64,000 bases of DNA from an uncultured Gammaproteobacteria bacterium. GTDB lineage: Bacteria; Patescibacteriota; Microgenomatia; Levybacterales; UBA12049. The position numbers and the translations under genes are program-made. Shown here piece by piece: positions 12,759 through 43,155 of this stretch. Location of the stretch: NCBI GenBank assembly GCA_964474445.1, contig CAYYSJ010000001.1, positions 345,377 through 409,376 of the forward strand, read 5' to 3'. Each line of letters opens with the position of its first letter. The stretch's first letter is position 1. The notes beneath the pieces are model-generated. The model was given only the letters and a program-made list of their open reading frames with translations. It had not been told where the DNA came from and searched no databases.

Positions 12759-12813
12759 AAAGAGTATTATAGCTGGTAAAAATGCATAATTCTATAGTTA
12801 ATTTCCAAATTTA

Positions 12814-13830: not shown

Positions 13831-14729
13831 AGAAGTCTTTTAATATTTTTCAATATACCCTCTGGATCCAATTCATTTTCTTTCTGATGGAAAGCGTGGT
13901 TTCCGTAAAGGTGAGAAAGATAACCTTTTGCAAAAAGATGCACAAAATTTCCGGAAGACAGATTTCTTTTTCCTAAAATAGAGAATAGCTTTTCTCCAAG
14001 TCCACCTACTCCCGAATGTTCCTCAACAACAAGTAACTTTTGAGTCTTGCGAATAGAAACAAATATTTCATCTGACAACTCGGTTGGTAATTCTGTTATA
14101 ACAAAAAGATCTATAACGTTTTCTTCTTTCAACTGATCAATTGCCTGCAGAACATTGTGAATAAGTGGTCCTAAAACAACAAGAGTTATTTTTTCTCCAT
14201 TTTTAATATGCCGAATTGGTGCATATGGAGGAAGCTGTATAGTTGTTTGAGGAGCTAAATTGAGACGAAGATACGAAGGTGCATTATTTTTATAGATTTT
14301 CTCCACAACAAAAGGCATATCCTCGACAAAAGCAGGAATATAAAGTTGCATATTGGGAAAAGATGAGTAAATTGCCACATCTTCCAACAGATGATGAGAT
14401 TCTCCCATAATGCCATACCCATAGCCACCACCAAACCCAGCTAGTTTTACTGGAAGATTGAGGTGGCATACATCATTCCTTACTTGTTCAACGGTCTTAA
14501 GAGTTAAAAATGTTGAGATACTATATACCCAAGGTTTAAGTCCTACATAGCAAAGGCCTGCAGCTACTGAAATCATATTTTGTTCAGCAACACCAGCATT
14601 GATAAAGCGTTCTCCGATACCATATCTTATCCCTTCAAATGCATTAAACCCTAAATCACCTGTGAGAAAGAAAATTTTTTTATCTTTTTTAGCGATTTTT
14701 TCCAGCTCTGTGATAAATTCTTTTTTCAT
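13827..14729 (-). CDS. Transketolase C-terminal section (Pyr and C-terminal domains of a split transketolase)
   Basis: ERFINAGVAEQNMISVAAGL matches the transketolase pyrimidine-binding motif. Length is 300 aa. It has a 4-nt overlap with the downstream epimerase. Confidence 0.8.
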   Translation of the reverse strand: MKKEFITELEKIAKKDKKIFFLTGDLGFNAFEGIRYGIGERFINAGVAEQNMISVAAGLCYVGLKPWVYSISTFLTLKTVEQVRNDVCHLNLPVKLAGFGGGYGYGIMGESHHLLEDVAIYSSFPNMQLYIPAFVEDMPFVVEKIYKNNAPSYLRLNLAPQTTIQLPPYAPIRHIKNGEKITLVVLGPLIHNVLQAIDQLKEENVIDLFVITELPTELSDEIFVSIRKTQKLLVVEEHSGVGGLGEKLFSILGKRNLSSGNFVHLFAKGYLSHLYGNHAFHQKENELDPEGILKNIKRLL

Positions 14730-14732
14730 ACG

Positions 14733-15548
14733 TCATTGTACCTTCCTATCAATTGATAAAAGTGCTTTTTTGTACAGATCATCTGTAAGAGTATGATAAT
14801 GCCAACCAATTTGGTTTTCCATAAATGTTACGCCATGACCTTTGATAGTATCAAAAATAATTACTTTGGGTTTGTTTCCTTTTAATTTCCCTACTTTCTT
14901 GAATACCTTTTCTATATGAACAGGATTATGACCATCAGCAGTAAAGACTTCAAAACCAAATGCCTCCCATTTTTCAGGAGTTGTTGATTTTCCTAGTACT
15001 TCTGCTGTCTTTCCAAATGCCTGAATCTTATTGTTATCTACTAGTACTACTAAATTTTTTAACTTTTTGGCTGTGGCATATTGGGCTGCTTCCCATACTT
15101 GACCTTCATTACATTCGCCATCAGACATCAAACAATAGACCATTGCTGGCTTTTTTGATTTTCGTAAATAAAGGTACGCTTGTGCCATTCCTGAAGCTAT
15201 TGATAATCCATGTCCTAAACTACCTGATGGGAAAGGAATGAATTCATCTAAGTCAGCAGCAGGATGAGCTGGTAATTTTGTTCCATTAGTATGAAAAGTC
15301 TGTAAATCTTTATCAGATAACCTGCCAATAGCATTCAAAACAACATACAGTGCAGGAACAGCATGACCTTTTGAGAGAATGAACTTATCATTTTTTTTAA
15401 TAACAGAAGAAAATAGCACTCTTAAGATGTCCAAGCAGGACAATGAACTTCCAATATGGCCCGCATGAGCATTATACAAGAGAGTAAGCAGATTTTTATG
15501 CAAAATATTTCTATTGAGTTTTTTTCGGATAGATATAGCTTTGGCCAT
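14733..15548 (-). CDS. Transketolase N-terminal section (TPP-binding domain of a split transketolase)
   Basis: Motifs seen: GHIGSSLSCLDIL, GSLGHGLSIASGMA and the TPP motif MSDGECNEGQVWEAAQYA. The track start is TTG at 15569. I prefer the ATG at 15548 (MAKAISIRKK). Confidence 0.8.
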   Translation of the reverse strand: MAKAISIRKKLNRNILHKNLLTLLYNAHAGHIGSSLSCLDILRVLFSSVIKKNDKFILSKGHAVPALYVVLNAIGRLSDKDLQTFHTNGTKLPAHPAADLDEFIPFPSGSLGHGLSIASGMAQAYLYLRKSKKPAMVYCLMSDGECNEGQVWEAAQYATAKKLKNLVVLVDNNKIQAFGKTAEVLGKSTTPEKWEAFGFEVFTADGHNPVHIEKVFKKVGKLKGNKPKVIIFDTIKGHGVTFMENQIGWHYHTLTDDLYKKALLSIDRKVQ

Positions 15549-15671
15549 TTGTTGCTCAATTATACACAAAAAATTATCCTTGTATACACCTAAGAATTAT
15601 CAGTTCTATCAGATTTCTTCATTATTGCAAAAACTATTGCTAATTGAGAAAATCATTGATGGTAAAATCAT

Positions 15672-16376
15672 ATGAGAAAAACTTTTTCCGTTATACTTCC
15701 CGTATACCATCAGTCCAACCAAATTGCACTTATTATTAAAAACTATACACATGGATTAACAAAATTAAAAAAGCCATTTGAGCTTCTGCTTGTTATCAAT
15801 GGAAATGACACTGCATCCTATAAAGAGGCAGTAAGGCTGGCAAGAAATAATTCCTCTATCCGGGTTATTTTCATAAAAGAATCTGGGTGGGGAAACGCCG
15901 TTTTGGTAGGATTGCAAAAAGCACAAGGCAAACTTATTTGTTATACCAATTCCGCACGTACACAGATTGACGATCTACTTGCAATGCTACGCTTTGCAGA
16001 CAAAAACCCTTCTATTGTTATTAAAGCAACAAGAATGCTTCACGTCAGTCCACTTAGAAAAATTGGCTCAACGCTTTACAATATAGAATGCCGACTTCTT
16101 CTGCATACTCCTGTGTGGGATGTCAATGGAACTCCGAAAGTTATTCCATATATGGTTACAAAAAAAATAAATCTTCAATCAAAGGATGACCTTATTGATG
16201 CAGAGCTTGTCGCAAAATGCATTGCCCTGCATATACCTATATTAGAAGTTCCAATTCTTTTTCCTCCTCGCTTTGGGGGCAAAAGTACAACAAATTATTT
16301 TTCTGCAATAAAGATGTATCTAGGGGTATTACGAATTCGAAAAATGGTGAGAAATATATTTCTTCATCAAGGGTAA
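15672..16376 (+). CDS. GT2 glycosyltransferase (one of three plus-strand genes in the glycan locus)
   Basis: FSVILPVYHQSNQIA is a GT-A N-terminal signature. Length is 234 aa. It is divergent from the transketolase operon. Its 3' end overlaps the convergent 16329..18302 gene by 48 nt. Confidence 0.65.
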   Translation: MRKTFSVILPVYHQSNQIALIIKNYTHGLTKLKKPFELLLVINGNDTASYKEAVRLARNNSSIRVIFIKESGWGNAVLVGLQKAQGKLICYTNSARTQIDDLLAMLRFADKNPSIVIKATRMLHVSPLRKIGSTLYNIECRLLLHTPVWDVNGTPKVIPYMVTKKINLQSKDDLIDAELVAKCIALHIPILEVPILFPPRFGGKSTTNYFSAIKMYLGVLRIRKMVRNIFLHQG

Positions 16377-18302
16377 CAAAAGAAGCATTCCCCATATAAT
16401 AAATGAGATAAAGGAAATAAGAAGCCCAATGCGAAAGGTACGTGAAGCATAAGAGAAGACATATGTATGATTTCCTTCGAGTGTTTGTACCTCTAGAAAA
16501 CGATGAGACAAAAGCTGTTGGTTTTTACCATCTATCCAAACATTCCATCCAGGATAATTCATTTGAGCAAGGGAAAGAATTTGTTTACTTTGTGCATTTG
16601 TCTTAATTCGAAAGGTATTAACACCAACATCCACATGTTGTGCTTGTGTACTTCCCTTTCCATCATATAACACAGCGAAGGGTCTTCCGGTTGATAATTC
16701 ATATACCGATGTGTCATCTTTTTGATACACTTTTTTTGCAGTCTCAGGGATATTATTGATTTGATTATGGGGAGTAATAAAATACCCCGGCTGAATGTCT
16801 TGGTAATTTGCAGCATAATCATATGGAGAGGGTCTTTTAACAAAGGCAAATGCTAAAGCAGGGCTATTTTTTAAAACAAAACCATAATTCGTATTTAACA
16901 ATCTTTGATTATGGTAATAAATAACGTCCTCAGGTACTTCATTAATCCAATTTTCCGCTAACACATAGTAGTTTTGTGTATTGTGTTTTTCAATCCAAGA
17001 AAAAATATCGTTGTATAAAGAATAATTTGCAGGGAACACACTATATGCAACAAGAGACGGATTAATAAGCATAGTTTCAAAGAAAAAAATTGTACAAAAG
17101 AGATTTAAAACAAGCATTGGAAAAACAAAGATACGGTATTTTTTACTTCTTAGAAGATATTCAGAAAAAAGGCCAAAAATCACCAAGATGATAACAACAA
17201 AATATGCATATGCTCTGCTCGGTACTCTAAAATATTGTAGTGAGGGTATAAAGGTTATTAACCAATGATAAGGGTTTACTAATAAAGCTGGCATAAGCAT
17301 AAGAAAGAAAGTGCAAAAAAGAAGTACCAGAAATATTTTTGACGGAATGTTTATCTTTTTATATTCCTTTATCATCCAAACAATTCCGATGAAGGGGAAA
17401 ATACCGATGAACGCTGTTTTCTCAAGATCTCCCCAAGCTGTTGAAATAAAAGAAGACAAATACGTAAGTTGAAATGGTTTATCAAATGGTATAAAAAGAT
17501 ATCGTATCATGCTTATAATTGTTTGACTTCCCTCAAACGGTTCTTTAGACTTCCCCAAGTACGTTTGCAACTCAACTATTGGTAATATTTTAACTGCAGA
17601 AAATAGCCCCATTAAGACAGCGGTGACAAAGAAATAAAAGAATACTTTTTTTTCTTTGAAAAAGAAATAACAGGCTAGTACAGAAAGTGAAAGCATTCCA
17701 TACATAACAAAATAAATACTTCCTGCTGACAAAACATAGAAAAAAGAAAGCGCTGCAATACCGGCCCAAAGAACGTTTTTCTTTCTACCTACTTGCATCA
17801 GAGAAAATATAACAAATGGAAGAATGCCATAAGGGACAACAGACTCAATGTGGCCTGCTGTAATTCGAGCAGCAGGATACCCACATACTGCATACGTGAG
17901 GGCAATAAAGAAAGCGATTGCCTCTGAAGAAACAAAAGACTTTGCCAAAAGGTACATAGTCTCGCATGCAAGAAATAATGAAAGGACATAAATTAGTTTT
18001 ATTGCACCATCATAGGATGGCATAATAATAAGAGGAATACTCATTACTGGGTTATATGCACTATACATAGGATCAGCTATCAAAGGCAACCCTTCTTGTA
18101 TGGTAGGATTCCATTGAGGAAACGTATGACTATGCACTATTGCATCACGAAAGTATAATTCCTGAAGATCCGTACCATTAAGATCGTTGGCATGGACAAC
18201 ATGATTATCTAGAATTACTGGAAGTAAAATTAATAAGCTAAAAATGAGGAATATACCATGAAAAAAAAGTTTATTAGAAAAGAGGATAAGCAATTTATTC
18301 AT
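16329..18302 (-). CDS. YfhO-like GT-C membrane protein with extracytoplasmic C-terminal domain and C-terminal TM anchor
   Basis: Length is 657 aa, with about 12 TM helices. First-loop motifs are GTDLQELYFRD and FPQWNPT...G.P. The C-terminal anchor is FRIGLLISFISFIIWGMLLLL. Confidence 0.6.
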   Translation of the reverse strand: MNKLLILFSNKLFFHGIFLIFSLLILLPVILDNHVVHANDLNGTDLQELYFRDAIVHSHTFPQWNPTIQEGLPLIADPMYSAYNPVMSIPLIIMPSYDGAIKLIYVLSLFLACETMYLLAKSFVSSEAIAFFIALTYAVCGYPAARITAGHIESVVPYGILPFVIFSLMQVGRKKNVLWAGIAALSFFYVLSAGSIYFVMYGMLSLSVLACYFFFKEKKVFFYFFVTAVLMGLFSAVKILPIVELQTYLGKSKEPFEGSQTIISMIRYLFIPFDKPFQLTYLSSFISTAWGDLEKTAFIGIFPFIGIVWMIKEYKKINIPSKIFLVLLFCTFFLMLMPALLVNPYHWLITFIPSLQYFRVPSRAYAYFVVIILVIFGLFSEYLLRSKKYRIFVFPMLVLNLFCTIFFFETMLINPSLVAYSVFPANYSLYNDIFSWIEKHNTQNYYVLAENWINEVPEDVIYYHNQRLLNTNYGFVLKNSPALAFAFVKRPSPYDYAANYQDIQPGYFITPHNQINNIPETAKKVYQKDDTSVYELSTGRPFAVLYDGKGSTQAQHVDVGVNTFRIKTNAQSKQILSLAQMNYPGWNVWIDGKNQQLLSHRFLEVQTLEGNHTYVFSYASRTFRIGLLISFISFIIWGMLLLLPLMKKYISHHFSNS

Positions 18303-19348
18303 ACCATTTTTTGTCTTTTAGCAAAAATAAAATGCAAAAGTATTTGAAAAACAGCTATAACTAAAGTGTAATATCCCCACATTGCTAACTTATTTTCCTG
18401 TGGTAATAGATAAATAATTCCACAAAACTCTGCAAGTAATAAAAAGATAATTGAAAACAGTAATGAGTATGTGTAAGGTAATTTTGAACGTACAATAAAG
18501 ATAATGAGAATTCCAAGAATTCCTAATGTGATTCCATAAAAAATATCATTTAAAAAAACGACATCAGCAATGATTAATAGAAAAGGAGCAATAACTTTTT
18601 TTGACAAAAGGAAAAGGAATATATTTGAAAATGGTAAAGGTGCTATTTCATGAGCTATAGTATTTGAAACAGTGAATACTAACAAAAAATATAAATAAAA
18701 AAACAATGGCAATAAATACAATGATGAAACAAGGAGCATATGAGTACTTGAAAATAACTCAATTACCTTTTCATACAGTAAGGAAAAAAGATATAGTTTT
18801 TTATGGTAAAGTTCTTTAAATGAATATATATATCGTGTAATAAAAGCATTATCTTTTTTTAAAAAAAATACAGCATTTGTCTTATCTCCATCTAGAGAAA
18901 GTACTTCAAACTGATATGTTTTACCAAGGGCTGATGTTATTTTAGGGAAACCAAAAACAAGAAAATTATTTTCTTTTATAGCATCTATCGTATACGTGTG
19001 TTGATAATATGGAACTTGTGCATTTTTCTCTTTGAGAGTAAATTGAATTTTATGTGCTTTATCTGGTTGTACAGAAAGTGTATTACTGACTTGTATTGCA
19101 ATAATACCTAAATTATGTTCTTTCACCCTAAACTCACCTATTAAACTTTCCCCTTGCATTAATAAATTATTTTTAGGCATATGCGTGTATTGATGAAAAC
19201 TATGGAAGTAAAGAAATGTCGTAAAACTTTCATGAGGATTGAATAGAATTGAGGCAATAATCCAGAAAAATAGCAAAAATAATGGAATAATTACCCAAAG
19301 TATTAAAAATTTAAAGCTGATTAAAGTTTGTAATGTTTTTTGTTTCAT
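18299..19348 (-). CDS. Hypothetical membrane protein (N-terminal TM, ~170-aa extracytoplasmic domain, ~6 C-terminal TM)
   Basis: There are no recognisable motifs. It is co-operonic, with 4-nt overlaps, between two YfhO-like genes. Confidence 0.5.
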   Translation of the reverse strand: MKQKTLQTLISFKFLILWVIIPLFLLFFWIIASILFNPHESFTTFLYFHSFHQYTHMPKNNLLMQGESLIGEFRVKEHNLGIIAIQVSNTLSVQPDKAHKIQFTLKEKNAQVPYYQHTYTIDAIKENNFLVFGFPKITSALGKTYQFEVLSLDGDKTNAVFFLKKDNAFITRYIYSFKELYHKKLYLFSLLYEKVIELFSSTHMLLVSSLYLLPLFFYLYFLLVFTVSNTIAHEIAPLPFSNIFLFLLSKKVIAPFLLIIADVVFLNDIFYGITLGILGILIIFIVRSKLPYTYSLLFSIIFLLLAEFCGIIYLLPQENKLAMWGYYTLVIAVFQILLHFIFAKRQKMV

Positions 19349-21651
19349 GTCTTATGTCTCCTTACAATAAACATGCTTATTATGAGTCCTATAAAAGAGA
19401 AAATACTTATCAAAATCCCCAAGTAAAAGTTTAATTGAGGAGTAAAATAAATCGTTAGCAATACATCTATTGATCCATTAGTGTTTACTTTATAAAATGA
19501 TGCATCGTATTGTTTTCGGATAATATTTGGATTAATGATCCATTCATTACTATAGTTTGAATTATGATGATGGATATTATTAAAATTAGCGGTTCTTAAA
19601 AAATAACTTAATTCATCCCCCTCATAAAGAGTGTCTTTGGGTGCGCATTCAATTACATTATCACTCCTCTTTATCCCGTTTTGACATTGTAGTGCTGCAT
19701 TATATTTTTCTATAAAAACTTTCCATCCATTATGATATGATTCTAAAAATTGTAATTTCTCTGGAAATTGAAGGTTTTTTATATAAACTCTATACTTAGT
19801 AGGATTAATTCTTTGAAAAAAACCCTCAGGTATTTGTATCGCTGTATTAGTCTTTTTCATTGTATAGAGTTCAAAATTATCATTTTTACTGACCAAAACC
19901 TTTTGATCTGTAAGGTTATTAATCATAGTCTGATCTTGATTTTGCAATCTAGATCCACCAAAAAAAAGATAAGAGTGTTTTACTTCATTTGGGATGTTTT
20001 TTGTAAATATAATAGCCCCTACATTATATGTGTAAAGCATATTACTTAATTTTTCATAATCACTATTTGCAATATATTGCCACATTTTTCCTGACTCTGA
20101 AGGAGGAAACGATAGTTCACCAGAAAAATCATTTATACCAGTAAAAAATTTGAAAGGAGAAGTTCCCGCGAATATGTTATTACTATTATCTTCTTTTATA
20201 ATCGCATAACCTGCAATATTAAGAGGAACATTCAGGATATTTGTTGTTGGGTCGATCGTTTGTTTTACTTTGGAAATAAAATCAAGATACTCCTGGGAAA
20301 TATTTACATTCTTATGTATTGATTTTGTTGTCCAAAGAGGAGCATTGATAATTTGTTCTATTGGGAGCGTATTTGTTACAATCACTAGAAAGGTAATTCC
20401 TGTAATTAAAAATTTTAGAGGAGAAAATTGTTTATTTACGATAATAAGTGAAAGAGTAAAAAAAACTGCATAAATAAATACATATCCAGGAGCAAATTTG
20501 TCATAAAAATTTCTGAACATAAAAAATCCAGGAAGATGTCCTAACATAAGAAATACTTCCTTAAGAGGACCTATATTTACAGTAAAGAAGAATAGAGATA
20601 AAATAAATGCAACTAAAAAGAATAAATATATACGCTTTTCAGTACTGTTAAGTTTCTTTTCCCAGTAAATAATTCCACCAAAGACAACTGCCACAAATAT
20701 GGTATTAAGGAAAAATGTTTTATCATAAAAACTCAAAAATATATTTCTTAATGGCCACTGATAATCAAATGTTAATTGTCTATGAGGTAGATTTAGAAGT
20801 GGATATAAAATATTACCTGTAGCAGTTTGGATAACAGTTGTGCGAAAAGTACTCGCAATATTAAAAAGATCTCCAAGATTGTTCCCGCCTTTAATAAGGA
20901 ATGTTGTCAAAAAAGGTAAAATCCAAAATGCTTGAGAAACTAAAAGGAAACTAAAAAATAGAATAGCTCGTTTTGCAAAGATAGTTATTATCCTACGTGG
21001 GAAAATAAAGGTCCCAACAAATAAAGTAAGAACTAAAGGAATGAATAATCCTAATATCCACGGGATACTATAAAGGCCTAGAGAAAGAAAAATACTCATT
21101 GTCATTGCATATACAATATATTTCCATTGATTGGTTTTTACGAATTTAATAAATGTCCAAAACAGGAAAGGGATAAGTGGAATAAGCCAAGCAGACATAA
21201 GAAATACAGAGAGTTGATTGACTATCATAATAGGAGAAAAAATATAGAAGAGAGCTCCTACATAGGGTTCTATATAGTTTGGTTTACTAACTAATTCTGA
21301 TATAAGTCTTTTGAAATAAATAAAACCGAGAATAAGAGGTAAAGAGAATGCCAAATAATCTACAACAATCCTTGATTTCAGTAACCAAAAGATAAATGAC
21401 CATATGGCAACAAATGGAAAAGAGTAGTGATTGGGATTAAAATATCCTATTGAAGAGATCGTGGTCCATGAAAAAAAAGACATTGACTTAAAATATTCAA
21501 TTGGATAAGCATATAGTAACCTAGTATCATCACCTCCTACGAATAATTTCCCATTAAATAAGTAGTAAGGAAGTGCAAAAAGCAGGACAATAGTAACCAG
21601 ATCTATAATAAGCTCGTAGTATTTTAGGAAAAGCTGTTTCAATGCAAACAT
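19345..21651 (-). CDS. Large YfhO-like GT-C membrane protein (about 768 aa from the preferred start)
   Basis: The first loop reads FVGGDDTRLLYAYPIEYF. There are many TM helices, then a long soluble domain and a C-terminal TM (FYLGILISIFSFIGLIISMFIV). The track start at 21780 would overlap the divergent gene at 21713. I prefer the internal ATG at 21651 (MFALKQLF...). Confidence 0.6.
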   Translation of the reverse strand: MFALKQLFLKYYELIIDLVTIVLLFALPYYLFNGKLFVGGDDTRLLYAYPIEYFKSMSFFSWTTISSIGYFNPNHYSFPFVAIWSFIFWLLKSRIVVDYLAFSLPLILGFIYFKRLISELVSKPNYIEPYVGALFYIFSPIMIVNQLSVFLMSAWLIPLIPFLFWTFIKFVKTNQWKYIVYAMTMSIFLSLGLYSIPWILGLFIPLVLTLFVGTFIFPRRIITIFAKRAILFFSFLLVSQAFWILPFLTTFLIKGGNNLGDLFNIASTFRTTVIQTATGNILYPLLNLPHRQLTFDYQWPLRNIFLSFYDKTFFLNTIFVAVVFGGIIYWEKKLNSTEKRIYLFFLVAFILSLFFFTVNIGPLKEVFLMLGHLPGFFMFRNFYDKFAPGYVFIYAVFFTLSLIIVNKQFSPLKFLITGITFLVIVTNTLPIEQIINAPLWTTKSIHKNVNISQEYLDFISKVKQTIDPTTNILNVPLNIAGYAIIKEDNSNNIFAGTSPFKFFTGINDFSGELSFPPSESGKMWQYIANSDYEKLSNMLYTYNVGAIIFTKNIPNEVKHSYLFFGGSRLQNQDQTMINNLTDQKVLVSKNDNFELYTMKKTNTAIQIPEGFFQRINPTKYRVYIKNLQFPEKLQFLESYHNGWKVFIEKYNAALQCQNGIKRSDNVIECAPKDTLYEGDELSYFLRTANFNNIHHHNSNYSNEWIINPNIIRKQYDASFYKVNTNGSIDVLLTIYFTPQLNFYLGILISIFSFIGLIISMFIVRRHKT

Positions 21652-21712
21652 ATAAACTTTTCTTATTGTAACAAATATAATTGTATGGTAAAGTGGTAAT
21701 CTATAAGATCGA

Positions 21713-22666
21713 ATGAAAAGAGTACTCGTTACAGGAGGAGCTGGGTTTATCGGAAGCCATATGGTTGAAAGACTCCTCAAGGAAGGTTACAAAGTAACAG
21801 TTTTGGACAACCTCTCAACAGGCCTCATGGAAAATGTCCCTAACGAAGTAACTTTTATCAAAGGAGATACTTCAGTAAAAGAAGATATTGATAAAGCCTT
21901 CGAAGAAAATGTTGACCTTGTTTTTCATATTGCAGGCTGTGCATCTGCTATCAATTCTTTTACCGATCCATATACAGATATTTACGCCAATTTCATCGGT
22001 ACGGTAAATATTATCCAAAAATGTGTCGAGAAAAAGGTTCCACGACTCCTTTACGCAAGCTCAATGACAACCTATGGACTAGTTAACAAGTTACCTGTTG
22101 GTGAGACGCATCCGGCAGTACCAATCTCCTACTATGGTATCAGTAAATATGCAGCAGAGCGTTTTGTGCATGCAACGGGAATGAGAAAAGATTTGTCTTC
22201 TCAATTCAATGTCACTTCTTTCAGAATGTTTAATGTTTATGGACCCCACCAAAGTCTCACCAATCCCTACCAAGGAGTCATGGCAATTTTTATTGGAAAT
22301 GTTCTAAGACATGAGCCCATCAATATTTTTGGGGACGGTGAGCAATCTCGCGATTTTGTGTATATCGATGATGTTGTTGATGCATGGGTTACTACTATAG
22401 ATAAACCACAAACATTTGGAGAAGTATATAATGTTGGTCTTGGGATAGATACATCAATGAATACACTTACTCAAACAATTATTCGTGTACTAAAAGAAGA
22501 TCCTAAATCCTATCCTATTCTTAGAAAAGAAGGAAGGCCAGGAGATCAAAGATATATGAGAGCAGACATTTCAAAAATAGGGCAAGCTATTGGGTGGAAA
22601 CCCAGATACTCATTAGAGAAGGGCCTTCAAAAAACGCTGGAATGGGCAAAGCAATATAGTGTATAA
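21713..22666 (+). CDS. NAD-dependent sugar epimerase/dehydratase (extended SDR)
   Basis: Motifs seen: VLVTGGAGFIGSH, catalytic YYGISKYAAE, and the conserved ASSMTTYG. Confidence 0.8.
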   Translation: MKRVLVTGGAGFIGSHMVERLLKEGYKVTVLDNLSTGLMENVPNEVTFIKGDTSVKEDIDKAFEENVDLVFHIAGCASAINSFTDPYTDIYANFIGTVNIIQKCVEKKVPRLLYASSMTTYGLVNKLPVGETHPAVPISYYGISKYAAERFVHATGMRKDLSSQFNVTSFRMFNVYGPHQSLTNPYQGVMAIFIGNVLRHEPINIFGDGEQSRDFVYIDDVVDAWVTTIDKPQTFGEVYNVGLGIDTSMNTLTQTIIRVLKEDPKSYPILRKEGRPGDQRYMRADISKIGQAIGWKPRYSLEKGLQKTLEWAKQYSV

Positions 22667-22681
22667 TATGTCTTTTGTATT

Positions 22682-23911
22682 ATGAAATCGTTTTCTTCTA
22701 TACTTATTTCAACTTTCTCTCCTTGGAAAAAAGGACTACGGTCCCCTACCAACGGCATGATAGAGCCAATGCTCTCATATTTTCTCCCTCGTTTTAAAAG
22801 AGTTTGGTTACTTGATCAACCATATCCAGGTAGTGATAGTGTTATCCCCTTTGTTGAAGAATATGCCCTTGGAAAATTACAAAAAAAAGAGGTAATAAAA
22901 AATTATATATTCCCACTTATCCCTTTTCTCCATCTTACTAACAAACCAGGAACACAGGCCCCGCACAAATTAAGAGATTTTTTAAGTACTTTAGAGGTAG
23001 GTTGTCAAACCTCAGAGCCATTTGACCTCTTCATAGGAATGGAGGCAATCAATGCTCTTGCTGGAATAATGCTACGAAAAATAGGGAAAGTTAAAAAAGT
23101 AGTTTATTATGTTTCAGATTACTCTCCAAATCGTTTTCCTAATCCTCTCTTCAATATGGTGTATCTCTGGCTGGATCGAACAGCAGCAATGTATAGTGAT
23201 TTTATTTGGGATGTCTCTCTAGCTATGCAACCTGCCAGAATAAAAGCAGGACTCAATCTGACAAAAAGCGCTCCTGTCATTCATGTTCCTAATGCGCTCT
23301 TTAAAGAACAAATTACCTATTTACCGTGGAACAAAAGAAAAAAGCATACCGTCGTATTTGTAGGAACACTAGGACTTGAAAATGGTCCAGATATTGCAAT
23401 AGAAGCCTTTCAAAAAGTTGTTGCAGAAATTCCAGATGCTACTTTACATATTATTGGCGGAGGAGGCCTAGGATTTGAATCTGAGTATCTAAAAAAACTT
23501 TCTGAAAAATATCATCTGGAAAAAAATGTTATTTTTCATGGTTTTATATCAGACCTAAAAAAATTATCGCAGCTTATTAAGCAATACGAAGTGGCCATAG
23601 CTCCTTATAAGAAAATTCCTGGCTCTCATAGACTATATGGAGATGCTACTAAACTACGATTATATATGGCCGTAGGTTTACCAATTATTGTTACCGATGT
23701 TCCACCACTAGGGAAAGAACTTGAAAAAAAAGGTGCTGCACTAACTATAAAATCTTCAAAAGGTGAGCTTGCAAGAGCAATTATTTCTATTCTCAATAAC
23801 CCTCAAAAAAGAAAAATTCTCATCAATAATGCTATTAAAACAGCAAAGGACAATTTGTGGGAAAAAACATATCAAAATGCACTAGATGAAATAGGAAAGA
23901 TTATTGATTGA
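22682..23911 (+). CDS. GT4 glycosyltransferase
   Basis: The C-terminal domain reads HIIGGGGLGFESEYL...LYMAVGLPIIVTDV. Length is 409 aa. Confidence 0.65.
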   Translation: MKSFSSILISTFSPWKKGLRSPTNGMIEPMLSYFLPRFKRVWLLDQPYPGSDSVIPFVEEYALGKLQKKEVIKNYIFPLIPFLHLTNKPGTQAPHKLRDFLSTLEVGCQTSEPFDLFIGMEAINALAGIMLRKIGKVKKVVYYVSDYSPNRFPNPLFNMVYLWLDRTAAMYSDFIWDVSLAMQPARIKAGLNLTKSAPVIHVPNALFKEQITYLPWNKRKKHTVVFVGTLGLENGPDIAIEAFQKVVAEIPDATLHIIGGGGLGFESEYLKKLSEKYHLEKNVIFHGFISDLKKLSQLIKQYEVAIAPYKKIPGSHRLYGDATKLRLYMAVGLPIIVTDVPPLGKELEKKGAALTIKSSKGELARAIISILNNPQKRKILINNAIKTAKDNLWEKTYQNALDEIGKIID

Positions 23912-25592
23912 TCTTCTTTAAGCTAAACTGTACTTCTTTTGTAATATTTTTTAAGGTTTTCGTCTGTGAATCGTACGAAAATGCATGGACATCTGAAGGA
24001 TTAAAATGATATGTTAGCATCTCCTTTTTTAGGTGGTCTAATGATGAATAGTATCCATAATCTAATCCACCAATCTTCTTGTAGCCTTCACTTCCTAAAG
24101 CCCAAAGGTATCCTGAAACAAGAAGCTGTTTTGGAATTTTGTGTGAGGCGTAATAAATTACAGGGACAGAGTACCCAAATCCATGTTGAAAAGGAACAAA
24201 GTTATTTTCGCCATACCATACCTTATCACCTGTAAAATAAAAAATATTGGTGTTATCTTTCAATGATGGTAACTGAATCTGCAATTGTCTCAAGAAACCT
24301 CTTCTTTCATTTGCTATCACTGCTTGCATTTGAATAAACTGTCGTGTTTCATTCACATGTAAAAAGAGAAGCCAAAAGGAAGATAGAACAAAGAGAACCT
24401 TCATGACCTTGCCAATATTTTGCTTCATTGAAAAAATGCGAAGAGCTATAGCACCCAACAATATACTCGAAGCTGCAATTGGTATATAGTAATACCTAGG
24501 TTCCATATATGCAAATGTTTTCCCGACAATAATATAAGGAATAATACTTAAGAAGAAAAAAAGAAGGACAAAATAAATCACCTGCATAGAATATTTGTTT
24601 GCCATTAGTTTTCTTACTATAAAATGTAAAAGTAACAATGAAGCTGCCACAGCAAGCAAATCCAATACAACTGTTTCACTAATTAAGTCCGTTTTTGTAG
24701 TAATAAAAGGATAATAGAGATTCATAAATTCCGAAGCAATTTTCAAGGCTGCATATACTGGTATAAAAACTAATGAAAAACTTGTTAAAGGATACATGAT
24801 AATTCTTGAGAGTATTGTTTCAATAAAAAATATTTTCCCTTGATTTGTACTAGCATATACTGACGAAGCAATAATACTTTGTCCTGCCAACTGACGTACA
24901 ATAGTCATTTCAATAAACCTATAAAGAACAAAAAATGAAGCAAAAATGATAAATGGACTAAATATGGTTATGTATTTTTTAATTTTTATCTTTTCTTTAA
25001 AAACCGCCGGCAATAACGGAAGAAAAATAAAAAGGAAAATTCCACTTTCCTTAAAATAAAGAGATAATAACGCAAAGAAGAGTGATGCATGTGCAAAAAT
25101 ATTCTTCTTTTTTTCTAAAAAATGAAGAAATAAATATATTGAAGAAAATATACAAAATGAAGCTGGCTGTACTCCGAAAGAAGCAGCAAACCATGTTATC
25201 GATTGCTGGGAAACACTGGAAAGGCCAAAATAAGCTGCGCTTATCATTGCTGCAAGATGATTTTTAAGAATCTTTCTAGAGATTAAAAAAATAAGCAAAG
25301 TATTAATTATATGGAATAGCACTCCATAAAGAGCTAATGGTAGTGATGCAAAGCCAAATGACTTAAAAAAAATAACTCCTAAAATCCCTGTTAGTGGCCT
25401 TGAGTCCCCAAAAATAATCTGAAAGGGAGATAGTCCAAATGTTACTGTCTGGAATCCCAAAGCTAATACTCTTCCTGATCCTAACCACTCATCCTGTTGA
25501 TAGAATGTTTTCGGTAAATCCCAATATGTATAAAAAATAGCAACAATAAGCAATAAAAAAAGAAAAAAATTGAATGAAAGAATGTGCTTCAT
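23901..25592 (-). CDS. GT-C membrane glycosyltransferase of PMT/ArnT-like type (GT39/83-like)
   Basis: A first extracytoplasmic-loop DE motif is present ([11 protein letters not shown]). About 11 TM helices precede a soluble C-terminal domain. Length is 563 aa. Confidence 0.6.
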
Positions 25593-26671
25593 TGAAGGAA
25601 ATGGCCACTTTTACATATATCCTCGATAATTCTATTGTTATCATATGTGTACTCCCAATCAGGATAGTGGGACTTAAATTTAGATACATCAGAGATATAC
25701 CAAATATGATCTCCAATTCTATTGTCGTCAACATACTTTACATTTGCTTTTTTGCCTAAAATTTTTTCTGTCTTTGCTATTGCTTCAAGCATAGAAGTAT
25801 TTGAATGACGTGATCCTCCAATATTGTATGCCTCTCCACTTCTTGGGTTTTGATAAACATGATAAAACGCGTTAACTAAGTCAAACGAGTGGATATTATC
25901 TCTCACTTGCTTTCCTTTATATCCAAATATCGTATATTCGGTACCTGTTGCAACACACTTAATAAGGTATGCTAAAAACCCGTGTAATTTTGTGCCACTA
26001 TGAGCAGGGCCTGTGAGACATCCTCCACGGAAAACGGTTGTATGAAGTCCAAAATATTTTCCGTATTCTTGGACCATGACATCAGCAGCAACTTTCGATG
26101 CGCCAAAAATACTATGCTTTGAATTATCAATACTCATTGTTTCGTCAATCCCTATATAGAATGGATGACCTTTTGGTAACTCATATCTTGTCTCAAGCTC
26201 TATTAGAGGAAGTCTATTTGGTGTATCACCGTAAACTTTATTTGTTGAGGTAAAAATAAAAGTAGCCTCTGGCGAATATTTGCGATAATGCTCAAGAAGA
26301 TACATTGTGCCAAGCGCATTTATTGTGAAGTCTGTCAAAGGTTCTTTTGCAGCCCAGTCGTGGGATGGTTGTGCAGCAGTGTGAATAATGAGGTCAAACT
26401 TATGAGTCTTAAATATTGCTTCCAATTTTCCATTATCTCGAATATCTGCAGAATAATGTGTGTACTTATCACCTAATGTTTCCTCAAGTCTATTTCTATT
26501 CCATTTTGTACTTGCCTCTTTCCCAAAAAAGTATTGGCGCATATCATTATCCACGCCAATAATATGAAATCCTTTTTCAGCAAAAAATTTTGCAGCTTCT
26601 GATCCAATAAGCCCTGCAGAACCAGTAATTAAGACATTCTTTGTCATTATTTTACACTTTATAATAGGCAA
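25589..26671 (-). CDS. Extended-SDR protein of the CDP-paratose 2-epimerase (Tyv)-like family, with Phe in place of the catalytic Tyr
   Basis: Motifs seen: [11 protein letters not shown] and [11 protein letters not shown]. The Y-x-x-x-K position reads FGASKVAAD; this is ttt at the nucleotide level, which I checked. The flanking [11 protein letters not shown] resembles the Tyv motif FGLNTVVFRHS. Confidence 0.65.
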
Positions 26672-26696
26672 TAATCACACAAAAAGCAATCAGCAT

Positions 26697-27803
26697 TTAC
26701 CTTTCTTCCTGTTTCTCGAATTCGTTTACATTCTTACAAATATATTGTACTTCTTTATCAGTCAGTTCTGCATATATGGGAAGAGAAAGAATTGTGTTTG
26801 CAAGCCTTTCAGCTATTAGAAAATCTCCTTTTTTATAACCCAAGAAAGAAAAGCATGGTTGCATGTGTATGGGAATTGGATAATGAATAAGTGTATGAAT
26901 TCCCTTTTTATTTAAAAACTGCTGCAGTGCATCTCGTCTTCGACTCTCAATAACAAACAGATGATAACAAGAATGGTATGTATCCATTATTTTTTGATAG
27001 CTTGAGAATAATAAACCTTTTTTGTACAGGGAAGCTATCCTATTTCGTTGTTTATTCCAACGATTGAGATATTGTAGCTTTACAGAAAGAAGAGAAGCCT
27101 GTATCTCATCAAGCCTACTATTATAGCCTATTTCTTCATGATAGTATTTCTTTGTTTGTCCATAATTTCTTAATTTAAGCAGTTTTTCGTAGATCTTTTT
27201 GCTATTTGTCGCAAGGGCACCCGCATCACCATAAGCTCCCAAATTTTTACCAGGATAAAAGCTAAAGACAGATATATCTCCAAAGGTGCCAACTTTCTTT
27301 TCACCTATTGTAGCCCCATGAGCTTGAGCAGCATCTTCAACTAAATAAATGTTATGTCTATCTGCTATTTTTCTGAGAGTAGCAACATCACATGGTGCCC
27401 CATAAAGATGTACGGGCAGAATAGCTTTCGTCTTTTTTGTTATTTTTTTCTCAACTTCTGTTATATCAATTTGATACGAATCGGGATCACAATCAACAAG
27501 GACCGGAGTGGCTCCAACAGTCACAATAGCAAGGGTTGTTGCAATAAAGCTATTAGCAGGTGTAATGACTTCATCTCCCACACCAATTTCTAGAGCTCGA
27601 AGAGCGAGTATAAGCCCATCTGTCCCAGAATTTACTCCAACAACATATCTAATCCCTAAATACTCTCCGAATTTTTCCTCAAAAGCTTTCAACTCACCTC
27701 CCAAAAGAAACATTTGACTATCTACAACTCTTTGTATTGCAACATCAACTTTTTCTTTTATAGTTTTGTATTGTCTTTGTAAATCTAAAAAGGGTATTTT
27801 CAT
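26697..27803 (-). CDS. DegT/DnrJ/EryC1/StrS-family PLP-dependent nucleotide-sugar aminotransferase
   Basis: A lysine motif is present (SVFSFYPGKNLGAYGDAGA). The N-terminal region reads VVGVNSGTDGL. Length is 368 aa. Confidence 0.85.
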   Translation of the reverse strand: MKIPFLDLQRQYKTIKEKVDVAIQRVVDSQMFLLGGELKAFEEKFGEYLGIRYVVGVNSGTDGLILALRALEIGVGDEVITPANSFIATTLAIVTVGATPVLVDCDPDSYQIDITEVEKKITKKTKAILPVHLYGAPCDVATLRKIADRHNIYLVEDAAQAHGATIGEKKVGTFGDISVFSFYPGKNLGAYGDAGALATNSKKIYEKLLKLRNYGQTKKYYHEEIGYNSRLDEIQASLLSVKLQYLNRWNKQRNRIASLYKKGLLFSSYQKIMDTYHSCYHLFVIESRRRDALQQFLNKKGIHTLIHYPIPIHMQPCFSFLGYKKGDFLIAERLANTILSLPIYAELTDKEVQYICKNVNEFEKQEER

Positions 27804-27810
27804 AGATACA

Positions 27811-28704
27811 TTATAAATAAAAATAGCCTCCCTTGCTTACTTTTTGCCCACTTTCTGCAATACAAATAGTTATGGAACCATTCTTTACCGCTACTTCAAT
27901 ACCATTCTTTTTTATTGAAATAATCTTACCTGGAAATGCTTTTCTTTTTTTCTTCGTTATTTTTATGACACCTACCACAGTCATTTCTTGTGCAGCATAT
28001 CGTGTTTTTGGAAATTGGAAAGGTGGAAAAATGAATGTCTGTATATACTTTGCAATTTTTTTTCCGTCTTGATTCCAGTCAATAAAAAGATTAGAAAAAT
28101 CAAGAGAATATCGCGAGTAATAATTAGAAAAAGTGTCACTTTGTTTAACGGCCTTGTAGGATTTCTCGACAAGATTCGTTAGGTTTCTTTTGAGAAGTGG
28201 CAATACTTGCTCACAGCACCATTCATAGACTGATCTACCTGTATCAGCTAGAGTGATTTTCTTTTTGATTTTATCAATGATTGGACCATCATCAATTCCC
28301 TCTGTTAATTTATGCAATGTTACACCAATATACTCATCATTAAGTAAATGCCAAAGTCCTGGGTAGCATCCTCTATTTTTAGGTAAATCTGCAAAATGAA
28401 AATTAAATATTTCTCCTTTTACCATATCGATAATTTCTTTTTTAATAATCTTTCGACATTGTATAGAGAATATAATGGAAGGCATAAATGCTGAGAGCTT
28501 CTCTAAAAAATCATTGTTTCGAAAGGATGAAGGAGATAGAAATGAAATTTTATTTTTAGAGCAATAGGATTTTAATGAGGGCTGCCAACTATCTTCTCCA
28601 TTATCATCAGGATCGACAATAACAAGTATGTCATATTGTTTATCTCGCAAAAAATTAATACTTGGTATTGCTGCCTTTCCGTTAGCAAAAATAGCTATTT
28701 TCAT
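27811..28704 (-). CDS. Sugar N-formyltransferase (FMT-fold N-terminal domain; WlaRD/QdtF/FdtF/ArnA-Nterm-like)
   Basis: Catalytic motif is present (FNFHFADLPKNRG, N..H...LP..RG). The conserved Asp loop is present (DDGPIIDK). Length is 297 aa, with a C-terminal extension. Confidence 0.7.
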   Translation of the reverse strand: MKIAIFANGKAAIPSINFLRDKQYDILVIVDPDDNGEDSWQPSLKSYCSKNKISFLSPSSFRNNDFLEKLSAFMPSIIFSIQCRKIIKKEIIDMVKGEIFNFHFADLPKNRGCYPGLWHLLNDEYIGVTLHKLTEGIDDGPIIDKIKKKITLADTGRSVYEWCCEQVLPLLKRNLTNLVEKSYKAVKQSDTFSNYYSRYSLDFSNLFIDWNQDGKKIAKYIQTFIFPPFQFPKTRYAAQEMTVVGVIKITKKKRKAFPGKIISIKKNGIEVAVKNGSITICIAESGQKVSKGGYFYL

Positions 28705-28707
28705 AGG

Positions 28708-29112
28708 TTACTTTATTATTTCATAAGGAAACGTGTCTTCTGCAGACCACTCTTTATCTGTATAGTTGAGAAGTGATGCTTGAGTAGATAGACTTTTGAA
28801 AGCATGAACAATATTAGGCCCTATTTCAAGACGAATATATTTGTTTGAATCCCCATTCAATGTCAGTCTTTTTTTCTCTTTTGTTTTAATATCCATAAGT
28901 TTTACTTGCAATTTACCAGATACTACACCAAACCATTCTCTCCATTTTTTGTGATAATGATTGCCACGAATAATACTTTTTTTATCAAATGTAACGAAGT
29001 AAATCTGACCAAATTCCTTTAGTTTTTTATTTAAGTCACTGTTACGCAGAAAAACAACAAGTTGCCCTCTCTTATCATTAAATTTTTCAAAATATTCTAT
29101 TTTGTAATCCAT
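28708..29112 (-). CDS. Cupin nucleotide-sugar 3,4-ketoisomerase (FdtA/QdtA/WxcM-C-like)
   Basis: It is a 134-aa cupin with IIRGNHYHKK (RG.H.H metal/acid-base motif). It lies immediately upstream of the formyltransferase and aminotransferase genes. Confidence 0.55.
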   Translation of the reverse strand: MDYKIEYFEKFNDKRGQLVVFLRNSDLNKKLKEFGQIYFVTFDKKSIIRGNHYHKKWREWFGVVSGKLQVKLMDIKTKEKKRLTLNGDSNKYIRLEIGPNIVHAFKSLSTQASLLNYTDKEWSAEDTFPYEIIK

Positions 29113-29117
29113 ATCTT

Positions 29118-30116
29118 CTAAAGACGTGAAGGATCTTTCCCAAGACCTAGTAGTATTCGCGCTAACTCATACTGGATAGCACATGCCGAAATAAAGGATA
29201 TTACTGGATGAAAAAACCACATAGGCTCTCCATCTTCTACAAAACCATATATGCTTCTGATGATGGGAAAAATAATACTCCATGCATAGAAAGGAAATAT
29301 AAAAAATTTAAACCATTGAAAGAGAGTAAAATATTTTACTCGTTTTACAATCCCTATACGTTTATCTTTAATTGCCATCATAGTAAACCAACGTTGTTTA
29401 CGAAAGTAATGTTCAGTGCTTCTAATTGTATGATGATATAGTGACAATGAGTAAATATAAGCAATTTTATAATTTAGATAAATATCTCTAACTGGAGTAA
29501 TATCATCATACATATTTTTTCGTATTTTACAAAATTCTTTTCTTACAGTAAAACCTTGAGCCAAACCCAATATGGGAACAGTCTTTGAAGAAGCATAATC
29601 ATATATTTCAAATGAGTTATTCGTATTTGTCGTCTTGTATATCTTTTTAAACGTTCTTGCATTGGCAGCATGCCCATAGATAAAATGATTTATCGGATCT
29701 GTAAAGGTATTAATATATTTAGTAAATAGTGTGTCTGAAGGAAGGCTGTCATGTTTGGGAAATGCAGCAAACACATCTTGCTTTGAAAATGTCTTAACAA
29801 TTTTTAAAAAAGCATTTTTATCATGAAAAATATTATCTGATGCTAAAATCATTAGTAAATCACCCTTACTTTTTTTCATACCTAAATATATTCCAGGTTC
29901 TGCAAATACATACTTGTTATGTACAATCGTTAACTTATTTTTTTTCGCAATTTCCAATGTCTTATCTGTAGATCCTCCATCAGCAATAACCATTTCAATC
30001 CTTGACGATGGATAATTTTGTCTTCTCACAGATTGTATTAAACTAGGTAAATCGTTTGCTGAATTAAGTGTAGGGGTAATAATAGATATAAGTGGAAATG
30101 TGTGTTTTTTTTGCAT
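29118..30116 (-). CDS. GT2 glycosyltransferase
   Basis: Motifs seen: LISIITPTLNSANDL, VIADGGSTDKT. Confidence 0.75.
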   Translation of the reverse strand: MQKKHTFPLISIITPTLNSANDLPSLIQSVRRQNYPSSRIEMVIADGGSTDKTLEIAKKNKLTIVHNKYVFAEPGIYLGMKKSKGDLLMILASDNIFHDKNAFLKIVKTFSKQDVFAAFPKHDSLPSDTLFTKYINTFTDPINHFIYGHAANARTFKKIYKTTNTNNSFEIYDYASSKTVPILGLAQGFTVRKEFCKIRKNMYDDITPVRDIYLNYKIAYIYSLSLYHHTIRSTEHYFRKQRWFTMMAIKDKRIGIVKRVKYFTLFQWFKFFIFPFYAWSIIFPIIRSIYGFVEDGEPMWFFHPVISFISACAIQYELARILLGLGKDPSRL

Positions 30117-32157: not shown

Positions 32158-33018
32158 TTATACTATTATAGAACGCAAAATGTCAGTAAGCTCCCCAACA
32201 GAAACAAGAGGAACGTCTCCCACATAGTTTTCATGAGATTTCTCTCCTTCTCTTTTACCTTGAATTTTTAATTTGATTTTTTGCTCTGGAAAAAGACTGA
32301 TAAATGCTTTTGCCAAATCTCCAAGCTTAAACTTCTTCGTATAAGAAAAAGGGTAAAACATTTCGTCTGCATTTATCCTCGTTTTTAGACTGGTAGATAC
32401 AATAAATCGAGCTGCATCGGGCAAAGTCACGAAAAAGCGTGTCATCTCAGGATCTGTAACTGTAATTTCGTTTCTGGTTTTTACCTGATGTTTCCATACA
32501 TCAATAACACTTCCTCTTGATCCTAAAAAGTTAGGACAGCGAACGTTAATGAACAAACCAGTACTAAACTTATTCGTTTCTTCAACTAAATATTCAGCAA
32601 ATAATTTACTCGCTCCATAGCAATTCACAACACCTATTGCTTTATCAGATGAAAGGTTAATAAAACGTTTGACGTTTTCCGCATGATCGAGTAAGTTCAA
32701 TACTCCTAAAATATTTGATTTTAGCACTTCTCGGGGATGCCTCTCTGCAAAAATAACATCCTTCATTGCTGCAGTATGATAAATAAAGTCTGCATTTTTA
32801 AACATTCTTTTAATCGTTACAGAATCGTTAATGTCTCCTACTTGAAAGGTAACCTTTGAGGAATGGATAAATTCTTTTGCTTCTTTTATGAGTCCTTCAT
32901 CACGACTAAGTGAGGTTATATCTGTAGCACCACTTTTTAAAAGTTCTTTTATAATATGTCTTCCAAGACTGCCGCTACCACCTGTAACGATTATTTTCTT
33001 ATTTTTTAGAGAGATCAT
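32158..33018 (-). CDS. UDP-GlcNAc 4,6-dehydratase-like (PseB/CapD/FlaA1, Polysacc_synt_2 family)
   Basis: Motifs seen: IIVTGGSGSLG, YGASKLFAE, DPEMTRFFVT. Confidence 0.7.
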   Translation of the reverse strand: MISLKNKKIIVTGGSGSLGRHIIKELLKSGATDITSLSRDEGLIKEAKEFIHSSKVTFQVGDINDSVTIKRMFKNADFIYHTAAMKDVIFAERHPREVLKSNILGVLNLLDHAENVKRFINLSSDKAIGVVNCYGASKLFAEYLVEETNKFSTGLFINVRCPNFLGSRGSVIDVWKHQVKTRNEITVTDPEMTRFFVTLPDAARFIVSTSLKTRINADEMFYPFSYTKKFKLGDLAKAFISLFPEQKIKLKIQGKREGEKSHENYVGDVPLVSVGELTDILRSIIV

Positions 33019-43152: not shown

Positions 43153-43155
43153 ATC

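Follow-up and report, generated by a model that had tools for sequence, protein, structure and literature searches.

The described systems closest to the locus considered here are the pathway to dTDP-3-acetamido-3,6-dideoxygalactose (dTDP-Fuc3NAc; dTDP, deoxythymidine diphosphate) of Aneurinibacillus thermoaerophilus, with the enzymes FdtA, FdtB and FdtC; the bifunctional FdtD of Shewanella denitrificans; the formyltransferases FdtF of Salmonella enterica O60 and QdtF of Providencia alcalifaciens O40; and the enzyme sets of Campylobacter jejuni, which includes WlaRD, and Helicobacter canadensis. FdtA and QdtA, the formyltransferases FdtF, QdtF and WlaRD, and the aminotransferases QdtB and DesV all act on dTDP-linked 3,6-dideoxy sugars. 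N-formylated amino sugars are rare, and have mostly been described in the O-antigens of Gram-negative pathogens. Here we describe a 64-kb stretch of DNA (the window, meaning the whole of the sequence analyzed) from an uncultured bacterium, in which adjacent genes encode a cupin, an N-formyltransferase and a DegT-type aminotransferase.

We propose that these three genes and the family-2 glycosyltransferase (GT2) gene that precedes them form one cassette, whose products synthesize a 3-formamido-3,6-dideoxyhexose in nucleotide-activated form and add it to a surface glycan; we put the probability of this reading at somewhat under 80%. The initial annotation of the window had taken the trio for a pathway of this kind, leading to 3-formamido-3,6-dideoxyglucose (Qui3NFo) or its galacto counterpart (Fuc3NFo). 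Its reading is supported by the placement of the enzymes in families of the C-3 branch and by synteny with acetyl-type cassettes, and one histidine of the cupin, H103, points to Fuc3NFo.

Family placement of the three enzymes

The cupin has the RGNHYH motif that was recorded initially, as part of RGNHYHKK, and is a small single-domain protein of the size expected for the fold (approximately 140 residues). Its length of 134 residues fits FdtA (139–141 residues) and not RmlC, which has approximately 180 residues and a C-terminal catalytic aspartate. The Pfam FdtA family (PF05523) covers residues 1–126 and is matched at 53.2 bits, where the gathering score is 23, whereas dTDP_sugar_isom (RmlC, PF00908) yields 25.4 bits and stays under its cut-off of 27. 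We also built a family profile from 24 homologues, drawn from a group of more than 260 close relatives at 60–88% identity, and scored it against solved structures. HCAN_0198 (7n67), the closest solved relative by both sequence and fold, received 39.9 bits, FdtA 33.4 bits and the QdtA variant in entry 4zu7 32.3 bits; RmlC-like proteins received 26 bits and CapF 23 bits. The cupin therefore groups with the 3,4-ketoisomerases and not with the RmlC epimerases, as the initial annotation had supposed. The margins are modest, and without its genomic context the assignment would be no more than probable. Identity to the solved ketoisomerases is only about 25–32%.

The alignment register was set by two FdtA mutant entries, 2pae (H49N) and 2pak (H51N). 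In this register H52, H54 and H103 of the cupin correspond to His49, His51 and His95 of FdtA, R15 corresponds to Arg15, and all four residues are invariant in the 24 homologues. His49, His51 and His95 make up the FdtA active site, with His49 as the proposed base, and the residue at position 95 is histidine in inverting isomerases and arginine in retaining ones (PMC2943079). The presence of H103 indicates the FdtA (galacto) subtype and favors Fuc3NFo over Qui3NFo; we predict that the protein is a nucleoside diphosphate (NDP)-4-keto-6-deoxyhexose 3,4-ketoisomerase of the inverting type.

The same pathway could instead end in the gluco product, Qui3NFo, if the cupin retained the C-4 configuration as QdtA does. 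HCAN_0198 has an arginine at the position equivalent to His95, the best named relative of the aminotransferase is QdtB, and the formyltransferase scores nearly equally on FdtF (160 bits) and QdtF (156 bits), all of which would suit such an outcome. Against it stand the invariant histidine at the position where inverting enzymes carry one (PMC2943079), the match of R15 to Arg15, and the behavior of QdtA itself: the wild-type enzyme scores 25.4 bits on the cupin profile, below the variant in 4zu7 – by our own reading the Y17R/R97H mutant – which carries arginine and histidine at the positions aligned with R15 and H103. We consider the gluco product unlikely, although it is the likeliest of the alternatives.

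The aminotransferase is a DegT-type protein, as first annotated (Pfam 392.7 bits), with the pyridoxal phosphate (PLP) lysine at K186 in SFYPGKNLG and with D157 present. Its ranking among solved structures runs from the unnamed 7b0d (407 bits) through QdtB (361), DesV (338), 7n63 (313) and 5u1z (297) to WbpE (approximately 242); we take 7n63 to be the H. canadensis aminotransferase and 5u1z to be WlaRG, both C-3 enzymes. The named or characterized enzymes among the top matches act at C-3, while several other entries in the top ten are unnamed or uncharacterized. C-4 aminotransferases score lower (perosamine synthase 186 bits, ArnB 148–169 bits). Because NCBIfam holds no FdtB or QdtB model, PseC and 4-aminotransferase models rank first for this protein in that collection.

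In the formyltransferase we found the motifs listed initially (N-x-H, LP..RG and a D-x-G-x-I loop) as N101-F-H103, L107-P108-K-N-R111-G112 and G-I-D138-D-G-P-I-I. The Asn-His-Asp triad of N101, H103 and D138 is invariant in 14 homologues and aligns to the FdtF and QdtF motifs. As a single sequence the protein retrieves QdtF (105 bits), FdtF, WlaRD and 7n7a (presumably the H. canadensis formyltransferase) from the PDB, followed by ArnA (80 bits) and Fmt (76 bits). With a profile of the 14 sequences the scores become 160 bits for FdtF, 156 for QdtF, 142 for WlaRD and 138 for another 3-N enzyme, compared with 102 for Fmt, 99 for ArnA and 42–58 for the 4-N enzymes VioF, WbtJ (which we take to be PDB 4nv1) and Rv3404c. 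The preference for 3-N-formyltransferases over Fmt and ArnA thus amounts to approximately 60 bits. The protein also stays below the cut-off of the Fmt model (TIGR00460; 98.2 against 201.5 bits), and it groups with the sugar 3-N enzymes, contrary to the outcome that would have undermined the initial annotation.

The alignment spans residues 8–279 of FdtF, which comprise the catalytic N-domain and the middle domain. A region resembling Formyl_trans_C is present, the feature that the initial annotation had named as a sign of a tRNA-binding enzyme, but it aligns to the middle domain of FdtF and QdtF and so provides no evidence for tRNA binding. No ankyrin repeat was matched by Pfam in the protein, which ends at residue 297. 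By these sequence features we place it in the broad family of sugar 3-N-formyltransferases, outside the ankyrin-bearing QdtF/FdtF subtype. The family is rare: among 5.8 billion proteins there are approximately 15 relatives above 43% identity, all metagenomic, which is a poor fit to a housekeeping gene such as fmt. More distant relatives (32–43% identity; L004:7867-10900 and L005:8291-12017) adjoin genes for a GFO_IDH_MocA oxidoreductase and a DegT protein, and not for a cupin, which suggests formylation of 3-amino sugars that arise from direct C-3 oxidation by a WbpB/WbpE-type route.

These scores also bear on a pathway of the Arn type, or another acting at C-4, in which the product would be a 4-formamido sugar – 4-formamido-4-deoxyarabinose (Ara4FN), or Qui4NFo of the VioF/WbtJ type – and the cupin an epimerase or non-catalytic. 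The ArnA model does give the top NCBIfam score for the formyltransferase, the NCBIfam ranking of the DegT protein is led by PseC and 4-aminotransferase models, and the order GT2, formyltransferase, aminotransferase, short-chain dehydrogenase/reductase (SDR), GT-C-like protein bears a superficial likeness to arnBCADT. But that ArnA score, 133.8 bits, falls far short of the 777 bits set as cut-off; the 3-N preference and the low 4-N scores point the other way; C-3 enzymes match the DegT protein at 297–407 bits and ArnB at less; no chain of ArnA or of a UDP-glucuronate decarboxylase appears among the SDR matches in the PDB at E ≤ 1e-10; and the window contains no ArnD. The initial annotation had set this pathway aside on similar grounds, and we likewise regard it as very improbable.

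Cassette synteny and the proposed pathway

Synteny is the strongest evidence for the function of the cassette. We examined four distinct cupin-anchored loci and found three of them to be acetyl-type, two in full and one in part. The full acetyl-type cassettes (L007/L008 and L011) consist of a GT2 of 331 residues, a cupin of 134 residues, a left-handed beta-helix (LbH) acyltransferase of 187–189 residues and a DegT protein of approximately 360 residues; the partial one (L009/L010) has a 134-residue cupin, a 150-residue acyltransferase and a convergent DegT gene, with no adjacent GT2. The LbH acyltransferase is FdtD-like, matching the acetyltransferase domain of 4mzu at 190 bits. Formyl-type cassettes, with GT2, cupin, formyltransferase and DegT, occur in the window, in the identical short contigs L001/L002, in L003 and in L018/L019. 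The formyltransferase fills the acetyltransferase slot of a Fuc3NAc/Qui3NAc-type layout, and the cassette can be described as a widespread acetyl-type cassette whose LbH N-acetyltransferase has been exchanged for a formyltransferase.

Identity to the window orthologues is 48–70% for GT2, 63–88% for the cupin and 51–75% for DegT. The window DegT is nearer to those of acetyl cassettes (62–64%) than to that of the formyl cassette L018 (51%), which suggests repeated exchange. A GT2 of 330–331 residues lies directly upstream of the cupin in L007, L011, L003, L018 and the fragments L008 and L012, though not in L009/L010, and from this synteny we expect that it probably transfers the 3-acylamido sugar. 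Solved relatives match only its N-terminal 100 residues (TarS, 33 bits), and it has one or two C-terminal hydrophobic helices. We also considered a polyprenyl-phosphate sugar synthase of the ArnC/GtrB type, which the data neither support nor exclude.

The related locus L016 shows what surrounds the cassette. Its order is methyltransferase, family-4 glycosyltransferase (GT4), a GT2 with a divergent 130-residue cupin, SDR, a 562-residue protein, methyltransferase, GT4 and SDR; the second methyltransferase has no counterpart in the window, and the other flanking genes are 55–80% identical to those of the window. Where the window has GT2, cupin, formyltransferase and DegT (26697-30116), L016 has only the GT2 and the divergent cupin (L016:4779-6004). 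Because the flanking methyltransferase, GT4, SDR, 563-residue protein gene, GT4 and SDR are conserved between the two, the segment that they bracket is a variable slot within an otherwise constant backbone. Downstream of the formyl cassette of L018 (5047-8080) come a GDP-fucose-synthase-like SDR and then a second set, made up of a 135-residue protein of unknown function, a hexapeptide acyltransferase and a LegC/PseC-like aminotransferase; an SDR of the same Fcl-like kind also follows DegT in the acetyl-type L011.

The genes of the window cassette and of the two that follow are listed in Table 1. GT2 and cupin are separated by 5 nt, cupin and formyltransferase by 3 nt, formyltransferase and DegT by 7 nt, and DegT and SDR by 49 nt, and the SDR gene overlaps the last gene by 4 nt. 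The open reading frames (ORFs) of the trio and of the SDR lie where they had been annotated, with the exception of the SDR start, and the E-values of their family matches are far beyond chance. Scans for promoters and terminators gave sites no more frequent than in shuffled sequence.

Table 1. Genes of the formyl-type cassette and the adjoining pair, in order of transcription
Feature	Coordinates	Strand	Length (residues)	Family match
GT2, family-2 glycosyltransferase	29118..30116	-	332	Pfam Glycos_transf_2, 62 bits
FdtA-type cupin	28708..29112	-	134	Pfam FdtA, 53.2 bits
Sugar N-formyltransferase	27811..28704	-	297	Formyl_trans_N, 58 bits; Formyl_trans_C, 30 bits
DegT PLP-dependent sugar C-3 aminotransferase, FdtB/QdtB type	26697..27803	-	368	Pfam DegT_DnrJ_EryC1, 392.7 bits
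Extended SDR, TyvE-like overall	25589..26647	-	352	Best PDB match TaTyvE, 141 bits
Multi-pass membrane protein	23901..25592	-	563	No Pfam match

In the pathway that we propose, an NDP-4-keto-6-deoxyhexose, most likely dTDP-4-keto-6-deoxy-D-glucose formed by RmlA and RmlB, would be supplied from elsewhere in the genome. The cupin would convert it to the 3-keto sugar, with H52 as the base and with H103, at the position of the inverting enzymes, directing the reaction to the galacto form. The DegT enzyme would then transaminate C-3 by means of PLP bound at K186 to give the 3-amino sugar, Fuc3N, and the formyltransferase, through N101, H103 and D138, would formylate the amine, presumably from N10-formyl-tetrahydrofolate, to give NDP-Fuc3NFo. 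Lastly, GT2 would pass the sugar to the growing glycan as its likely acceptor.

Several observations weigh against this scheme. Among the 52 listed window ORFs of at least 150 residues that we scanned (a 183-residue antisense ORF at 45649-46200 was left out), there is neither a nucleotidyltransferase nor a bona fide dTDP-glucose 4,6-dehydratase, which agrees with the initial remark that RmlA and RmlB are not obvious in the window. None of the five window SDRs, in which we looked for RmlB, has the Asp-Glu dehydratase pair or scores above the dehydratase cut-off. RmlA and RmlB were not found in the related cassettes either, so that the precursor and its nucleotide are assumed. The cupin passes the Pfam Polysacc_synt_C family as well, at 48.6 bits. 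The arginine of HCAN_0198 implies that one residue may not settle the configuration of the product, and the GFO_IDH_MocA neighbors of the distant formyltransferase relatives imply that those enzymes use other 3-amino substrates.

With no RmlA or RmlB in the window, the cassette might work on a different activated sugar: UDP-2-acetamido-4-keto-2,6-dideoxyhexose, to give a 2-acetamido-3-formamido-trideoxyhexose, or GDP-4-keto-6-deoxymannose, to give a sugar of the N-formyl-mycosamine type. A gene for a PseB/FnlA-like Polysacc_synt_2 protein lies 3 kb upstream (32158-33018, minus strand; 174 bits on the PseB model), overlapping the GT2 gene upstream of it by 20 nt, and L018 has guanylyltransferase-like and GDP-fucose-synthase-like genes near its cassette. 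However, the PseB-like protein has only 286 residues and scores well under the model cut-offs, the syntenic L003 and L016 encode no such protein but a GT2 at the corresponding point, and the top-scoring characterized relatives of all three enzymes use, as outlined above, dTDP-linked 3,6-dideoxy substrates. We therefore hold a different starting sugar to be quite unlikely.

The SDR, its membrane partner and the rest of the window

The initial annotation had the trio followed by a Tyv-like SDR. The protein is indeed Tyv-like overall, but its start was misplaced, it lacks the catalytic tyrosine, and it is not part of the trio. Translation starts at the ATG at 26647, which gives 352 residues, and not at the TTG at 26671; the 352-residue form is on record and the 360-residue form is not. 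Its relatives in the PDB include TyvE, GalE and RmlB, and the best are CDP-tyvelose 2-epimerases at 141 (TaTyvE) and 121 bits. The hallmarks of TyvE are a Thr124/Tyr164/Lys168 triad, a TNK segment and a VAM segment (PMC13098431). In the window protein the threonine, the Thr-Asn-Lys segment and the lysine (K185) are kept, while F181 replaces Tyr164 and P94-S95-H96 replaces VAM. The protein resembles TyvE but is not a member of the CDP-tyvelose 2-epimerases (SDR1E).

The SDR belongs to a family of more than 8000 proteins at E < 1e-30, with 780 representatives at 50% identity. The canonical tyrosine site, compared in 90 full-length representatives, is phenylalanine in 72, tyrosine in 11 and leucine in 5, and a Pro-Ser-His-Asp motif is conserved across the family. 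The window SDR is 73–86% identical to its counterparts in metagenome-assembled genomes of different lineages. Some members are fused to GT2, GT11, WecG/TagA or methyltransferase domains, which argues that the family acts on activated sugars. One homologue, P0290 (740 residues), is interrupted by an insertion with a LAGLIDADG domain, probably an intein or a homing-endonuclease insertion.

It could be supposed that the SDR is a fourth enzyme of the pathway, one that epimerizes C-2 to give 3-formamido-3,6-dideoxy-talose or -mannose. In both the window and L003 it comes directly after DegT, the solved structures nearest to it are those of C-2 epimerases, and some of its kin are fused to transferases of the WecG/TagA type, enzymes that use manno-configured donors. 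But the SDR and the membrane protein recur in L016/L017 with no formyltransferase, no DegT and no cupin of the trio's type; neither the formyl cassette L018 nor the acetyl cassettes L007 and L011 include the SDR; its gene overlaps that of the membrane protein and stands apart from DegT (4 nt of overlap against 49 nt of spacing); and it has neither the catalytic tyrosine nor the VAM segment of TyvE. A role in the pathway is thus unlikely, and in our view the SDR gene opens a distinct, conserved module of the downstream backbone, outside the formamido-sugar pathway.

The 563-residue membrane protein is translationally coupled to the SDR and part of the same neighboring module. It has no Pfam match even at E = 1, approximately 11 hydrophobic segments and an invariant D34-E35 pair in the first loop, and it is 58% identical to the protein encoded after the SDR in L016 (7056-8744); proteins of this type are always encoded downstream of the SDR. 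A comparison with hhalign against the window's PMT_2 paralogues gave a probability of 92% (E = 5e-7) over the N-terminal 200 residues. The protein is probably a GT-C-fold glycosyltransferase, remotely akin to the PMT_2/ArnT type. In the Levybacteria genome L013 the same SDR precedes a GT-C_AftD protein instead.

We also offer, as speculation that we ourselves think improbable, a bolder view of the pair. The SDR would represent a large uncharacterized family of nucleotide-sugar enzymes, most of them with phenylalanine in place of the catalytic tyrosine, in which the Pro-Ser-His-Asp motif perhaps supplies the base, and its partner would be a new membrane glycosyltransferase of GT-C type outside Pfam; the SDR might even epimerize the formamido sugar to an undescribed 3-formamido-3,6-dideoxy-talose or -mannose.

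The window as a whole is almost entirely devoted to glycan synthesis, at a GC content of approximately 28–39%, and encodes many GT2 and GT4 transferases, several SDRs and two flippase-type proteins (one Polysacc_synt, one MOP/Wzx-like). Four tandem GT-C membrane proteins of the PMT_2/YfhO type (39839-46454, minus strand; 546–558 residues), of which the three PMT_2-type ones are mutually 38–39% identical and the fourth only 21%, and two larger YfhO proteins (51208-53454 and 54770-57139, both minus) constitute an unusually dense group of polyprenyl-phosphate-sugar-dependent transferases for one locus. A sub-cluster at 10763-15569 (minus) encodes a split transketolase-like pair (278 and 300 residues), an SDR (338), a sulfotransferase (306) and an APH-type kinase (367), and its product may be a branched or sulfated sugar. 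The part of the window with the lowest GC content (28–31%) holds three successive large ORFs (16329-21780, minus; 657, 349 and 811 residues) with no Pfam match.

Significance and comparison with known systems

What is known of the pathway itself is unchanged by this locus, which holds an ordinary known pathway in a new host. The cassette suggests a surface N-formylated amino sugar in an uncultured bacterium that is probably ultra-small and a member of the candidate phyla radiation. The placement of the host, probably in the Microgenomates group of that radiation, is drawn from just two named relatives, Shapirobacteria and Levybacteria. It also illustrates a route of glycan variation, in that exchange of an acetyltransferase for a formyltransferase in a single slot of a conserved locus is akin to serotype switching. 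An ankyrin-less enzyme of the FdtF/QdtF kind and the acetyl-to-formyl swap in the variable slot are modest twists on what has been described, and the compactness of the enzyme may make it useful in chemoenzymatic synthesis. The tyrosine-less SDR and its membrane partner are more unusual items than the trio.

With the Fuc3NAc pathway of A. thermoaerophilus the window locus shares the cupin cluster of His49, His51 and His95 and a C-3 aminotransferase; it differs in having a presumably folate-dependent formyltransferase rather than an acetyl-CoA transferase, and in that rmlA and rmlB are unlinked. An N-acetyltransferase like FdtD of S. denitrificans occupies the same slot in the close relatives of the cassette. 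FdtF and QdtF, the best-scoring solved relatives of the formyltransferase, have the N-domain, the middle domain and the triad in common with it, but at 405 and 417 residues they extend into a C-terminal ankyrin-repeat domain.

The Arn system (PmrHFIJKLM) likewise combines a formyltransferase that has an Fmt-like second subdomain with a DegT enzyme, a GT2 and a multi-pass protein of GT-C type. It differs in that it aminates a pentose at C-4 and depends on the decarboxylase domain of ArnA and on the deformylase ArnD; none of these features is seen here. As regards the downstream SDR, TyvE of Salmonella (1orr) and of Thermodesulfatator atlanticus (9rl0) shares the Thr-Asn-Lys segment and the catalytic lysine with it and differs at Tyr164 (phenylalanine here) and at VAM (Pro-Ser-His here).

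WlaRD of C. jejuni and the H. canadensis set (HCAN_0198, 7n63 and 7n7a) follow the same logic as the window trio, with a ketoisomerase, a C-3 aminotransferase and a short, ankyrin-less 3-N-formyltransferase, and structures from these two sources are among the top matches of all three window proteins. The cupin and the formyltransferase show low identities, and the position of His95 in FdtA is an arginine in HCAN_0198 and a histidine in the window cupin. The hosts differ as well: those of WlaRD and of the H. canadensis enzymes are Epsilonproteobacteria with lipopolysaccharide, whereas the window cassette comes from an uncultured bacterium of low GC content that probably belongs to the candidate phyla radiation.

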